This document shows, in pieces, positions 3,656 through 40,236 of a stretch of DNA of 64,000 bases (positions are counted from its first letter, which is position 1; each line of letters opens with the position of its first letter). This stretch comes from a phage: sequence record PZ452610.1. One strand, 5' to 3'. The notes under the pieces were generated by a model, which worked only from the letters and a program-made list of their open reading frames with translations, was not told the origin of the DNA and ran no database searches. Position numbers and translations under genes: made by a program.

Positions 3656-3684
3656 ATAATATCAAATCCAGAGGAGAAGTAAAC
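3656..3684 (-). promoter_or_regulatory. T4-type early promoter (GTTTAC - 17 nt - TATTAT)
   Basis: Minus strand GTTTACTTCTCCTCTGGATTTGATATTAT; spacer TCCTCTGG is complementary to the downstream SD region CCAGAGGAG. Confidence 0.55.
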
Positions 3685-14412: not shown

Positions 14413-15072
14413 TTAACCTCGATTCATAAATGCATTAAATATTTGGTCATCAACAGAAATTTCTAATTCGACTTCAATTGCTTCGGCCTTTTCTTCAGGT
14501 GGTAATTCGTATCCACACACTACAATTTTTTCATCGATATCAAAATATACAGAAGCAATACGATTAATGTTATTTTCAGTTAAGTCCAAATCAACATCAA
14601 CATCTTTTTGGCCTACACTTAGAGGATAACTAATACGGGTTATTTTATTATCTTTAACAAAGAGTCCACCAACATACTCTGTACTACGTTTGAAGTTTAC
14701 ACGTTTCCGAATTGAAAGATATGATACATCTTTACCGTGAGCTCGGCTCATAGGACATAATGAATAGCTAGAATAAGAGATGTCAAATCCTACACCTTCA
14801 ATATGAGCCAACGCGTCATGATTAAACCAATTATAATCATATGCCAAATCCATTATATTGTAATATGTGAAAGGCACAGGATTAACATCATATGTTGTAC
14901 CTTTAAAATCTGCCCAGGCAACGATTTCGTTATCTTTAACAATTACAAAAATTACACCAATATGGTATCCTTTATTATTTTCATTCGGCGTTATATTATA
15001 ACATTGTGCATTAGGAAATTTACCATATTTAAATGGTGCGTTTTTGTGCATATAATAAATCATATTATTCAC
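14413..15072 (-). CDS. Hypothetical protein, 219 aa (61.2 position; candidate AdfA-like anti-DarT factor by synteny only)
   Basis: Position between 61 and sp as for T4 61.2; no motif recognised. Confidence 0.5.
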   Translation of the reverse strand: MNNMIYYMHKNAPFKYGKFPNAQCYNITPNENNKGYHIGVIFVIVKDNEIVAWADFKGTTYDVNPVPFTYYNIMDLAYDYNWFNHDALAHIEGVGFDISYSSYSLCPMSRAHGKDVSYLSIRKRVNFKRSTEYVGGLFVKDNKITRISYPLSVGQKDVDVDLDLTENNINRIASVYFDIDEKIVVCGYELPPEEKAEAIEVELEISVDDQIFNAFMNRG

Positions 15073-15697: not shown

Positions 15698-15727
15698 TAT
15701 AATATCTTGTTTTAACTTTGGCGTAAA
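15698..15727 (-). promoter_or_regulatory. Early promoter (GTTTAC - 18 nt - TATTAT)
   Basis: Minus strand GTTTACGCCAAAGTTAAAACAAGATATTAT. Confidence 0.5.
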
Positions 15728-15731
15728 CCAA

Positions 15732-16100
15732 TTAATTAAATTTGTTTAAACGTTCAATACACTGGACGTAGTTATTCGCGATTTGTTTCTGGGTAGGCTC
15801 TTTACCAGTTGTTTCAACATAACGAATGAATGCGATTTCAGTAGCCTGTAGACAATGTTCTTTAACGCGTTGTTCTTTTGACAATGCTACAGTATCAGAG
15901 TCACGATAACGTTGAGCATGGGCATCAGCTTGAATCATTCGATTACCTACAGTAACCGGGTCTTCCACTTCAACTTTAGGTTGGTCGTACTGTTTAACAT
16001 TCGGATTGTAAATCAATTGGCCAACGTTATTAGGGATAAAGCCATGGGCACCACATCCGGTTAATCCAAATACCATTGCTAAAGCGATTAATTTTTTCAT
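15732..16100 (-). CDS. Putative lipoprotein, 122 aa
   Basis: Signal peptide with lipobox LTGC (MKKLIALAMVFGLTGCGA). Confidence 0.55.
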   Translation of the reverse strand: MKKLIALAMVFGLTGCGAHGFIPNNVGQLIYNPNVKQYDQPKVEVEDPVTVGNRMIQADAHAQRYRDSDTVALSKEQRVKEHCLQATEIAFIRYVETTGKEPTQKQIANNYVQCIERLNKFN

Positions 16101-16128
16101 TTCAATTTCCTCTGTAGTTGATAGAAAG

Positions 16129-16158
16129 ATAGTAACACAGTATGTGGGGCTTGTAAAC
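16129..16158 (-). promoter_or_regulatory. Early promoter (GTTTAC - 18 nt - TACTAT)
   Basis: Minus strand GTTTACAAGCCCCACATACTGTGTTACTAT. Confidence 0.45.
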
Positions 16159-16171
16159 AGTTATTTTAAAA

Positions 16172-16381
16172 TTATCGAAAATCTGCTTCGAAAACTTTCT
16201 CGTCATTAACAAATGCTTTAACTAATGCTTTGTTCACTTCAGCAAGTTGTACCGTAACCCACTCGATTTCTTCGCGATCACCTGATAACATGATATCTTT
16301 AGTGAACATCTCACCGCTTTTAAACCAACCGATAAAAGTAACTTTAGTTAATTTGCTCATATTTCCTCGCAAAATGCCCAT
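16172..16381 (-). CDS. Hypothetical protein, 69 aa
   Basis: ORF; likely true start at internal Met MSKLTKV. Confidence 0.4.
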   Translation of the reverse strand: MGILRGNMSKLTKVTFIGWFKSGEMFTKDIMLSGDREEIEWVTVQLAEVNKALVKAFVNDEKVFEADFR

Positions 16382-16674
16382 TCAGCGTGATAAACTGTAG
16401 CGCCTTTAGTATCATTCATTTGAACTACATCTACCGGAGAAATTACTCGATAGAGACGTGGTTCACCTCCATAAGAGCGTGCTGCTCGTCCTGCATAAAT
16501 CTTTGCTAAACCGATATCTTCAGTAAAGAATACACGATCCAAGTTTTTCTTACGTCCAGTTTCAGACAGAACTCCTGTTTCTTCAGGAGGACAAAGCATG
16601 TTTTCGATGTTAGCTGAACTACTTGAACCGTGATAAAAAATCTTAAATTCTGCTTTACAATCAATGGTTTTCAT
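16357..16674 (-). CDS. Hypothetical protein, 105 aa, with H-G-S ... IYAG motif (possible minimal ART-like fold)
   Basis: ATG 16674 with SD GGAG; FYHGSSS followed about 40 aa later by GLAKIYAGRAA. Confidence 0.5.
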   Translation of the reverse strand: MKTIDCKAEFKIFYHGSSSSANIENMLCPPEETGVLSETGRKKNLDRVFFTEDIGLAKIYAGRAARSYGGEPRLYRVISPVDVVQMNDTKGATVYHAEWAFCEEI

Positions 16675-16700
16675 TTTGTTCTCCGGTAGTTGATAGGTCT

Positions 16701-16729
16701 ATAATAACACAACTACCGGAGAAGTAAAC
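16701..16729 (-). promoter_or_regulatory. Early promoter (GTTTAC - 17 nt - TATTAT) with spacer/SD inverted repeat
   Basis: Spacer CTCCGGTAGTTG is the exact complement of leader CAACTACCGGAG, which contains the SD. Confidence 0.6.
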
Positions 16730-17104
16730 TTAAAAACGTAATTTAGATATATCTGCGTTGATTTCGTTTTGGTTTGCGTCGTATGCAATTAAACGAACCG
16801 CTTTAGATGGGTCATTCAATGCATAGAAATGATGGAACATTGCTCGAACGATATCACCATTTACGAGTTCTACCTGGATAGGAGAACCTTTTTCGAGTTG
16901 GAAATGTTCATAAGCTTTGATGGTTCGCAGATAATCAAGTTTTTGATTTCCAGCTCCAACAATTTGTACGATACGTTTGCCCATGTTTTCCATACGAGAT
17001 ACAATAGTTTTAGGAGCAAGAATAACGTAGGTTGCCAGTGGAGAAACTACTTCAACAGTTGTGTTTTCGGTGATTGCAGTAAAAATTGCTTGAGACATAT
17101 TCAT
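16730..17104 (-). CDS. Hypothetical protein, 124 aa
   Basis: ATG with SD AAGAGGAAAAC; own early promoter. Confidence 0.55.
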   Translation of the reverse strand: MNMSQAIFTAITENTTVEVVSPLATYVILAPKTIVSRMENMGKRIVQIVGAGNQKLDYLRTIKAYEHFQLEKGSPIQVELVNGDIVRAMFHHFYALNDPSKAVRLIAYDANQNEINADISKLRF

Positions 17105-17164
17105 AATGTTTTCCTCTTGGTTGGTGTAAGTACATCATATCATGCCTAGAGGAAGATGTAAACC

Positions 17165-17195
17165 CAGAAAGGAGACCGAAGTCTCCTTTTTATTA
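17165..17195 (-). terminator. Hairpin GGAGAC-TTCG-GTCTCC after gene 41
   Basis: Perfect 6-7 bp stem with UUCG loop; T-rich flank on both strands. Confidence 0.55.
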
Positions 17196-18635
17196 AAATT
17201 TTAACTCATTGGCTAAGCTATCTAGGTCAGCACGTGTTGCTTTGGCTTTACCTACGCGTTCCGTACGATTCACCTCTGCCTGACGCATCTGAGCACCTGC
17301 GTTTTCATTTACTGTGTTAGGTGTGTTCATGCCTTCTTGCTCAATCTCAATCCATTTCTGGTTGCCTTTACGTACACCCATCAGGAATTTATTCCACTTA
17401 TTCTTATCGCCGTATCGTGATTTGATTTGTTTGATAAGTTGTTGTTCAGCTTGTGCAAGTTCTTCGGTTTCAATTACAGCCAACATGAAATCCGCCGTTG
17501 CTGGTAAACCTGCTGATTCTGCAATATCACTCATGTTCATGTCTGAAGCATCCCATGCTGCACGTCCTACTTGAGCTGCAGTCCATAGAACTGTTTCAGA
17601 TTCTACTGCTAATGCACGAAGTTCTTCTGCGATAGCTTTAACTAATGTGTAGCTATTTTCAGTGTAAACTCTGATACGACAAGACCCACAAATACCTAAG
17701 TAATCAACCATGATTACAGATGGTACAAAGTTCTTCTTAAGTTTTAACTCATTAAGCAATGCACGAAATGTATTAGCATTAGCTCCACCAGTAGGATACT
17801 GTTTAACTACTAAACGTCCTAATGTTGTTTTTGAACGCCATTTTTCCATCTTGGCTTTATATTCAGCATAAGATACGTTACCATCATCAATATCATCAAG
17901 TGATACGTCAAGCATGTTTGCATCTATACGCTTAGCACAAACTTCTTCAGCCATTTCCATAGAAATATAAAGAACGTTATGACCTGTTTGAAGATAATCT
18001 GCAGCAAGTGAACAAAGGCCTAAAGATTTACCAACGTTAACACCGGCCATTAAAACGTTCAGTGTACCTGTTTCTGCACCACCTTTGGTGATTTTATTCA
18101 GAATGTTTAATTTGAACGGGACCTTACGTGCTTTATTTAGATAAGAAAGCCAGCGTGCTTCATAATCTTCCATCCAGTCATGGCCAACATAACTATCAAA
18201 CGAAATTGAAAGTGCTTGACGCATAATATCAGGAATAGCTCCTACGTCAGGCATTTTCTTGTTACGTTGTTCTGGAGGTAGTTCAGCATTAGACTGAATC
18301 TCAATGATTTTGGATGTAGCATTATACATCGCTTTTTGCTGGACATATTTCTCAGTTTCTTTAACCAACCATTCATGGTCTTCAGGAGTATCAGCCAATT
18401 TTTCAATTAGGTCTGAAGTTCCTTTATATTCGGCTTCAGTTAAAGAACTGTTATCTAAAGCCACCTTTAACGCATTGATAGATGGCATTGCATTATATTC
18501 GTTAACGTGGCTCTTTATAATTTTAAAGACATTTTTTGCCGGTCCACGCTCAAAATACTCAGAATCCATATAAGGCCAGACCTTAGAAAAATAAGCCTGG
18601 TCATATACGAGATGAGACAAAATAATTTCTACCAC
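17193..18635 (-). CDS. 41: Replicative DNA helicase gp41 (DnaB family)
   Basis: 480 aa; MVEIILSHLVYDQAYFSKVWPYMD... and Walker A GVNVGKS match T4 gp41; start codon appears to be GTG. Confidence 0.95.
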   Translation of the reverse strand: MVEIILSHLVYDQAYFSKVWPYMDSEYFERGPAKNVFKIIKSHVNEYNAMPSINALKVALDNSSLTEAEYKGTSDLIEKLADTPEDHEWLVKETEKYVQQKAMYNATSKIIEIQSNAELPPEQRNKKMPDVGAIPDIMRQALSISFDSYVGHDWMEDYEARWLSYLNKARKVPFKLNILNKITKGGAETGTLNVLMAGVNVGKSLGLCSLAADYLQTGHNVLYISMEMAEEVCAKRIDANMLDVSLDDIDDGNVSYAEYKAKMEKWRSKTTLGRLVVKQYPTGGANANTFRALLNELKLKKNFVPSVIMVDYLGICGSCRIRVYTENSYTLVKAIAEELRALAVESETVLWTAAQVGRAAWDASDMNMSDIAESAGLPATADFMLAVIETEELAQAEQQLIKQIKSRYGDKNKWNKFLMGVRKGNQKWIEIEQEGMNTPNTVNENAGAQMRQAEVNRTERVGKAKATRADLDSLANELKF

Positions 18636-40108: not shown

Positions 40109-40236
40109 ATCTATCGAGGATGTAAACTGGTTTTATGAAAATATTTTTGATTTGAGAGGGGCACAAGGAGATAGTGAAGTGAAGATTCCAATGGATTATA
40201 TTAGAAATGAGATAAAGAAGACCAGGCGGCACCTGG

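Follow-up and report, generated by a model that had tools for sequence, protein, structure and literature searches.

A 105-residue phage protein with a predicted ADP-ribosyltransferase fold encoded upstream of dmd in an RB69-like genome

ADP-ribosylation is a central weapon on both sides of the conflict between phages and bacteria, as illustrated by Alt, ModA, ModB, DarT, CmdT and AcrIF11. Alt, ModA and ModB of T4 are ADP-ribosyltransferases (ARTs) that act on host proteins at the very start of infection (PMC9503650). The same study predicted a 'novel type-II T-A system', a toxin-antitoxin pair, in phages of Escherichia, Shigella and Salmonella, in which an ART of the 'p0068 family', placed in the H-Y-[EDQ] clade, is combined with Dmd as the antitoxin. 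Dmd acts against the host proteins RnlA and LsoA (cited in PMC9503650 and PMC11825919). The ARTs Arr and Tpt1 are assigned to the H-H-h clade by the group that made the prediction. In Arr, residues H19, Y49 and D84 are critical as judged by mutagenesis, the DPN[VL] motif that holds D84 is 100% conserved, and S99, H125 and V140 contact rifampin (PMC6092378). Here we analyze a gene on the minus strand of a 64,000-nucleotide stretch of phage DNA (sequence record PZ452610.1, hereafter the window). Its open reading frame (ORF) runs from ATG to stop at 16357..16674, immediately upstream of dmd, and encodes a protein of 105 residues that is predicted to adopt a minimal ART fold and is referred to below as the ART protein.

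The ORF is identical to the annotated coding sequence (CDS) FDG79_gp164, a 'hypothetical protein' of E. coli O157 typing phage 3 in RefSeq. The region from 15700 to 17200 shares 100% identity with E. coli O157 typing phages 3, 6 and 13 and at least 95% identity with about 140 further Mosigvirus (RB69-like) genomes. Judged by its sequence, the window is itself a Mosigvirus genome. The CDS belongs to phrog_2110, and its description as an ART-fold protein draws on the ORF, the RefSeq annotation, the modeled fold, conservation and homology with Arr.

The ART fold and the relationship to Arr

An AlphaFold2 model built from an alignment of 23 T4-like homologues reached a pLDDT of 85.2 and a pTM of 0.77. 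It contains strands at residues 13-18, 48-51, 72-81, 84-87, 94-97 and 99-104 and a long helix at residues 54-68, arranged as the split β-sheet of the ART superfamily. The H-G-[ST] motif that binds NAD in these enzymes is found in the first strand as H15-G16-S17. The core comprises about 95 residues, with only about 12 residues preceding the HGS strand. In a Foldseek search against the PDB, Arr (9iaf) ranked first with a probability of 1.00 and a TMq of 0.63, followed by Tpt1 (8tg3). Against BFVD, the best match beyond close homologues was a 94-residue phage 'Ms Rifampin ADP-ribosyl transferase' with 37% identity, a TMq of 0.73 and a TMt of 0.81; the next were PcfJ-like and ParB-like polyvalent proteins and a putative phage RNA 2'-phosphotransferase. 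No competing fold was present among the structure matches in either database. The model thus assigns the protein to the ART superfamily.

Sequence comparison leads to the same neighborhood by way of more distant relatives. Searched alone, the window protein matched only phrog_2110 (E 3e-60), whose function is unknown, and no PDB sequence was matched by profile A1, built from the close family. Arr came into reach only through A2, a profile of 38 divergent domains taken from representatives at 50% identity. In hmmsearch against PDB sequences, A2 retrieved Arr-ms (2HW2, 9IAF; E 7.8e-5) and ARR-2 (E 7e-4). Using hhalign, it matched ARR-2 alone with a probability of 95% and an E-value of 2.7e-8, and an alignment of 23 Arr proteins with a probability of 96% and an E-value of 2.4e-9 over 102 columns. 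Moreover, when 54 multidomain relatives were compared with the Pfam family Arr-ms (PF12120), the homologous domain was recognized in 33 at E <= 1e-3, and several of these matches exceeded the gathering score. With E <= 10 as the limit, Pfam Arr-ms did not match the window protein and gave weak matches to two of the 23 T4-like proteins (best E 0.12), none of which reached the threshold. Because relatives match the Pfam family and the T4-like proteins stay below its threshold, we regard the latter as a divergent branch bordering on the Arr family, and not as Arr itself.

Residues aligned using HMMER show which parts of the Arr active site have a counterpart. H15-G16-S17 corresponds to H19-G20-T21 of Arr-ms, T33 to S37 (the serine of Arr's SN[YF] motif), E38-x-G40-R41 to E40-x-G42-R43, and F49 to Y49. 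The Asp84 of Arr, part of its DPN[VL] motif, has no equivalent, as the ARR-2 segment DDPNLTNK that holds this residue faces an eight-residue gap in the phage family. The hhalign alignment stops at residue 122 of the 150 residues of ARR-2, about 28 residues before its end, where the phage protein also stops; the C-terminal region that carries the rifampin contacts S99, H125 and V140 is absent.

The residues that stand out in the alignments are H15-G16-S17, T33, E38-x-G40-R41-K-K-N-L, F49, T51, Y60, G69-G70, G91 and T93. Among the 23 T4-like proteins, H15, G16, E38, G40, R41, K43, N44, L45, F49, T51, D53, Y60, R63 and A64 are invariant, as are G69, G70, G91, F101 and E103. We then considered a wide set of 94 domain sequences, cut from representatives of clusters at 50% identity. 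Here H15, G16 and Y60 are still invariant, residue 17 is always Ser or Thr, and P29, P30, T33, E38, R41, F49, T51, A57, A61, G69, G70, G91 and A100 are kept in at least 90% of the domains. Residue 93, at the start of strand 94-97, would occupy the position of the canonical ART glutamate in the model. The window protein has Thr93 there in place of the catalytic Glu, Asp or Gln expected at the start of strand 5, and the T4-like subgroup has Thr or Ser throughout; across the wide set, 52 domains have Thr at this position, 18 have Glu and 12 have Ser.

The 18 relatives with Glu keep the canonical residue in a G-[TS]-E-V context, and nine of them are proteins of 1,000-3,700 residues. The Glu forms include P0139, P0158, P0173, P0183, P0184, P0196, P0205, P0209 and P0225. 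Their chemistry may differ from that of the Thr and Ser forms.

A preliminary description of the window, made from its letters alone, had pointed to two short motifs, FYHGSSS and GLAKIYAGRAA, about 40 residues apart, and had suggested a very short ART scaffold of the H-Y-E type. The ORF and both motifs (residues 13-19 and 55-65) are present, H15 and Y60 being 45 residues apart, and the invariance of H15, G16 and Y60 across the 94 domains together with the profile matches to Arr takes the motifs beyond chance. The suggested fold was borne out by the model, by the structure matches and by the hhalign match to Arr, which answered its call for a remote homology search; a match to a non-ART fold, which it had named beforehand as grounds for rejection, did not appear. 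Its reading of H-G-S as part of the NAD site also agrees with the alignment to Arr. The proposal that the tyrosine of IYAG belongs to the catalytic triad holds in part. Y60 is invariant, but it is F49, within the VFFT strand, that aligns with Tyr49 of Arr. Y60 lies 10-11 residues downstream of F49/F50 and is probably the second aromatic residue, comparable to Tyr65 in diphtheria toxin, a spacing that would fit the diphtheria toxin/PARP pattern. Two further proposals have to be given up. By both the profile and Foldseek, the nearest relative is Arr rather than an ART of the diphtheria toxin/PARP type. Neither is the acidic C-terminus (HAEWAFCEEI) a likely source of the catalytic glutamate: E103 and E104 are lost outside the T4-like subgroup, and their codons form the Shine-Dalgarno sequence of dmd.

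Proposed activity and alternative explanations

On balance, we consider it probable, with moderate confidence, that the ART protein is an NAD+-dependent ADP-ribosyltransferase that serves as an early effector against a host or defense component. It would bind NAD+ and move ADP-ribose onto this component to the benefit of the phage. As acceptor we tentatively prefer a phosphate or hydroxyl group on a nucleic acid or nucleotide, RNA first, over a protein side chain. This choice follows from analogy, because Arr modifies the hydroxyl of a small molecule and Tpt1 an RNA phosphate. It also follows from the lack of a catalytic Glu or Asp combined with the invariant basic loop E-x-G-R-K-K-N-L, from the NUDIX and 2H partner domains of relatives, and from the nearby dmd and RNA ligase 2 genes. 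In its boldest form, which we put forward with considerable doubt, the smallest ART core so far (about 95 residues) would ADP-ribosylate RNA or nucleotide phosphates or hydroxyls without the canonical Glu and without the Asp of Arr. Examples, equally speculative, would be the capping of RNA ends, as Tpt1-type enzymes can do, or the modification of a nucleotide immune signal. If this were true, T4-like phages would possess an early RNA-protecting or signal-quenching counter-defense, encoded on the same transcript as the RNase inhibitor Dmd.

Several points weigh against an active transferase with such a target. We found no experimental study of the ART protein in the literature. The window protein itself has no match in Pfam, NCBIfam, PADLOC or PDB sequences (phmmer), so its connection to Arr is transitive via the profile. 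Model confidence is lowest in the loop with E38 and R41, where block pLDDT values are 65-76. No acid is found at either of the positions used by characterized relatives, with Thr at residue 93 and the D84/DPN loop deleted; NAD might therefore be bound without transfer of ADP-ribose. Lastly, the proposed target class rests on analogy and weak context.

The alternative that best withstands the evidence takes up this thought and sees a non-transferring protein with an NAD site, either an NAD+ glycohydrolase or a sponge for NAD+ or for immune signals derived from ADP-ribose. Thr or Ser at residue 93 in the T4-like subgroup, against Glu in 18 of 94 relatives, and the loss of Arr's catalytic Asp loop speak for it, and yet no change is seen in the residues that align with the NAD pocket. 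However, Tpt1 and Arr transfer ADP-ribose without a Glu at this position. The same is true of the H-Y-I/L/T mono-ARTs of the PARP family. The invariant basic loop and E38 point to the binding of a second substrate, and the context offers no link to signaling defense systems. We regard a non-transferring protein as unlikely.

According to the proposal of PMC9503650, the ART would be the toxin and the product of the overlapping downstream dmd the antitoxin of a phage type II pair. The dmd gene (16172..16360, minus strand; 62 residues) is recognized by its annotation, its sequence and a Pfam Dmd match with an E-value of 7e-21, and the ART gene lies immediately upstream of it. The dmd start overlaps the ART stop by four nucleotides (ATGA), the last ART codons being GAG GAA ATA TGA (16357-16368, minus strand). 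The Shine-Dalgarno sequence of dmd, GAGGAA (16368-16363), coincides with codons E103-E104, and since these codons form the dmd translation signal, the acidic C-terminus of the ART protein would be constrained. A promoter scan of the minus strand detected no promoter-like site from the ART start to dmd, which makes co-transcription of the two genes probable. This shared promoter and the overlap are what a toxin-antitoxin pair would display, and such a pair was predicted in PMC9503650.

The comparative data speak for a looser relation. Using profile A1 we found 64 ART-bearing viral loci, and sought Dmd within 4 kb of each. It was present in 10 of the 64. In these cases it invariably follows the ART gene directly (gap of -24 to +1 nucleotides), which speaks for a pair. 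At the remaining loci the next gene falls into many unrelated clusters, even among homologues with 82-86% identity, and encodes a small membrane protein, a Cys-rich acidic peptide, lipoprotein-like ORFs, a GIY-YIG-like ORF or others. T4 has gene 41 followed by dmd, with no ART gene between them. The host names differ as well. The ART protein was detected using tblastn in 610 of 50,697 phage records, mostly at 60-100% identity, the commonest hosts being Escherichia, Klebsiella, Acinetobacter, Aeromonas, Enterobacter, Cronobacter and Vibrio. Dmd was found in 801 phage records, and nearly all of these phages have Escherichia, Shigella, Yersinia or Salmonella as host. The ten commonest names among these records include neither Klebsiella nor Acinetobacter nor Aeromonas, which rank second to fourth among the ART records. 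In 566 of the 801 records, Dmd is less than 60% identical to the protein encoded here, a band sampled by T4-group phages such as RB51 and RB32.

The two genes are thus not inherited together; as far as their occurrence in phage genomes tells, they assort independently, and for this reason we rejected an obligate ART-Dmd pair. Dmd also has an established role against RnlA and LsoA already, and cassette insertion is the simpler account. Their adjacency is best explained by promoter-equipped cassettes inserted between gene 41 and dmd, a variable region. A toxin-antitoxin function of the pair therefore appears distinctly improbable, and the comparative data do not support the published prediction (PMC9503650).

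A true Arr orthologue would modify rifamycin-type antibiotics and thereby shield the host RNA polymerase that the phage needs. Arr is indeed the closest characterized relative, and some homologues are named 'rifampin ADP-ribosyl transferase' in GenBank. Yet the D84 of DPN[VL], 100% conserved in Arr (PMC6092378), is absent, the protein stops about 40 residues short of the end of Arr and so lacks the region with the rifampin contacts S99, H125 and V140, and all 23 T4-like members score below the Pfam Arr-ms threshold. This explanation is very improbable, and with both the Asp loop and the rifampin-binding site missing we discarded it. That a small phage protein of unrelated fold and function shows the motifs by coincidence is hardly credible: HGS and IYAG are short and the window protein alone lacks database matches, but the profile E-values, the fold matches and the Pfam Arr-ms matches of relatives all lead to the ART superfamily.

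The ART protein is a compact and easily expressed candidate for revealing a new host target or a chemistry of ADP-ribosylation that dispenses with the usual catalytic acid. The protein is found at 60-100% identity in about 600 T4-like phages; in the window, its gene has a candidate early-type promoter and lies within a counter-defense cluster.

Promoter, neighboring genes and distribution

A pattern scan identified a candidate early-type sigma-70 promoter for the ART gene at 16701..16728 on the minus strand. It consists of a -35 box TTTACT (16728-16723), a 16-nucleotide spacer and a -10 box TATTAT (16706-16701) preceded by TG. The sequence agrees with the early consensus of T4-group phages, TTTACW..TAYWAT (PMC4122927), and similar sites precede ORF124, ORF122 and imm. 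The generic scan was not enriched over shuffled sequences (7 sites against 5.0 +/- 2.5 expected). Each site begins with GTTTAC and lies 26-30 nucleotides upstream of an ORF start; it is this position, not enrichment, that counts.

The candidate promoter is embedded in an inverted repeat with arms of 19 nucleotides. The 5' arm (16710..16728, minus strand) covers the -35 box and the spacer and contains an anti-Shine-Dalgarno sequence, TCTCC. The 3' arm (16674..16692, minus strand) covers the Shine-Dalgarno sequence GGAG (16684-16681) and extends to the first base of the ATG (16674), leaving the -10 box in the loop. The predicted RNA fold has an energy of -26.5 kcal/mol and a z-score of -5.7. A scan of the window revealed the same layout with different stems at other early-type promoters of the minus strand, with -35 boxes at 3683, 58131 and 61084, and in weaker form at 40126, 17162, 49858 and 54478. 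They share the promoter pattern GTTTAC-N16/17-TAnnnT, a 5' arm with the anti-Shine-Dalgarno TCTCC or TTCCTC in the spacer, and a 3' arm over the Shine-Dalgarno sequence. Across the window these hairpins have folding energies of -20 to -23 kcal/mol and z-scores of -4.8 to -7.5; the pairing is kept while the stems differ. This is in accordance with the preliminary description, which had given the gene its own early promoter with a covarying inverted repeat.

We propose that host RNA polymerase would use this promoter to transcribe the ART gene during the first minutes of infection. A free ribosome-binding site would be present only on RNA initiated here, within the hairpin loop, and in RNA reading through from upstream the site would be paired. 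The layout would in this way silence translation from read-through RNA. PeSL elements are stem-loops upstream of a promoter (PMC4122927), and we rejected the assignment to a classical PeSL since the stem here spans the promoter and the ribosome-binding site. A terminator-like site inside the ORF (16589-16572) was likewise rejected, as one such site was found and 0.9 were expected by chance.

The genes on the minus strand are ordered uvsX, 40, 41 (helicase), ORF124, ORF105 (the ART gene), dmd, ORF122, imm, sp, 61.2, 61.1, ORF164 and 61 (primase). The equivalent block in T4 reads 41, dmd, 61.4, sp, 61.2, 61.1, 61. Because gene 41 is directly followed by dmd in T4, ORF124 and ORF105 are extra genes at this point. 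ORF124 (16730-17104, minus strand) belongs to phrog_10668 of unknown function and has no Pfam match; it is preceded by its own early-type promoter (17162->17134) with a weaker hairpin that sequesters the Shine-Dalgarno sequence. A lipoprotein-like signal, MKKLIALAMVFGLTGC, opens the product of ORF122 (15732-16100, minus strand; Pfam DUF5481, phrog_1754), which takes the position of T4 gene 61.4, with no homology to 61.4 detectable by BLASTP (E 0.13).

Further along, an ORF of 219 residues (14413-15072, minus strand) shares 66% identity with T4 gp61.2, which we take to be the anti-DarT factor AdfA. PMC11825919 names AdfA in RB69 and T4 and does not confirm the gene number. With this presumed identity of gp61.2, the neighbors dmd, imm, sp and gp61.2/AdfA are counter-defense or exclusion genes. 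If gp61.2 is AdfA, the block that holds dmd, imm and sp would also encode a blocker of a host DNA ADP-ribosyltransferase, at a distance of 1.3 kb from the ART gene of the phage itself.

In Slopekvirus, a group of Klebsiella phages (L002, 3001-5719), a membrane protein of 58 residues follows the ART gene in place of Dmd. The ART gene there lies four genes upstream of RNA ligase 2 and adjoins a zeta-toxin-like gene on the opposite strand.

Beyond phages, the domain is rare. A survey of 185,579 bacterial and archaeal species, each represented by one genome, yielded five loci. Three are close matches (64-71% identity), two of which sit on contigs of 167-178 kb, as large as a T4-like phage genome. 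The other two are in Patescibacteria. Accordingly, the domain is almost exclusively phage-borne. The two Patescibacteria (CPR) genomes encode stand-alone homologues of about 145 residues with 48-51% identity (L073, 4902-5348; L074, 4923-5354). They are the only clearly cellular copies in the survey, and their neighbors, an rve-family transposase and glycoside hydrolases, are uninformative.

Many relatives carry the domain within larger proteins, often giant polyvalent ones. Of 58 representatives of at least 160 residues with a domain match, 30 have it at the C-terminus, 22 at an internal position and 6 at the N-terminus. Its partners are ART-PolyVal, NUDIX, DUF7178, GNAT, Toprim, LPD23 and ddrB-ParB, and further a lambda-type portal followed by a 2H phosphoesterase, a tape-measure domain and CHAP. 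P0166 (954 residues) combines a lambda-type portal, the Arr-like ART and an Acb1-like 2H phosphoesterase in this order. P0158 (1955 residues) has ART-PolyVal, the Arr-like ART and NUDIX in a row. In both fusions the domain is joined to enzymes that act on RNA ends or on nucleotide and ADP-ribose pyrophosphates. The flanking domains of mid-size fusions match only PHROGs of unknown function, and one such fusion sits in the replication module, not in the structural module. Polyvalent proteins unite several host-injected domains in one polypeptide (PMC9503650). As the architectures include the Pfam polyvalent families ART-PolyVal and LPD23, the ART module is probably delivered together with the DNA in other phages, and in T4-like phages it would be made from an early promoter.

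Comparison with known systems

The ART protein differs from the ARTs best known from T4. Alt, ModA and ModB are far larger members of the R-S-E clade and have no relationship to it in sequence; in addition, Alt is packaged in the virion, whereas the ART protein would be produced from an early promoter. The anti-CRISPR ART AcrIF11 targets a protein side chain, and we detected no sequence-level relationship between it and the phage ART.

The match in gene order is closest with the 'p0068-like' ARTs, which were predicted immediately upstream of Dmd in phages of Escherichia, Shigella and Salmonella (PMC9503650). No other ART adjoins dmd in the window, and from the published description we infer that the ART protein is a member of this family. 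In contrast to the H-Y-[EDQ] clade given in that paper, the protein analyzed here is nearest to Arr and Tpt1, and a general pairing of ART and Dmd is not supported. The assignment as an ART is already known from GenBank, where homologues bear the names 'ADP-ribosyl transferase' or 'rifampin ADP-ribosyl transferase', and the arrangement of ART and Dmd has likewise been reported before.

In shape, the ART protein resembles the NAD-binding C-terminal lobe of Tpt1/KptA. The N-terminal, RNA-binding lobe of Tpt1 has no counterpart here, so the two-lobed architecture is absent. That lobe carries most of the Arg-His-Arg-Arg catalytic tetrad of Tpt1. Comparison with E. coli KptA using hhalign gave a weak match (E 0.004, probability 8%) in which only C-lobe residues 97-155 align, and we do not claim membership of the Tpt1 family at the sequence level.

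Overall, Arr is the closest known system. Both are small single-domain ARTs with HG[ST] where strand 1 ends, an aromatic side chain at the position of Tyr49, an E-x-G-R loop, Ser or Thr at the SN[YF] position, and G-G before a strand ending in V-x-P, and they are joined by profile homology (PF12120; PDB 2HW2, 9IAF, 9IBA) and by the best Foldseek match. Arr has 143-150 residues compared with 105 here, its Tyr49 is replaced by Phe, the D84 DPN[VL] loop is deleted, and the loop equivalent to E-x-G-R is more basic (GRKKNL). Since the Asp84 loop and the C-terminal part that contacts rifampin are both missing, the substrate of the ART protein is almost certainly not rifampin. Finally, Arr is encoded on bacterial chromosomes or integrons, whereas the ART protein belongs to lytic T4-like phages.

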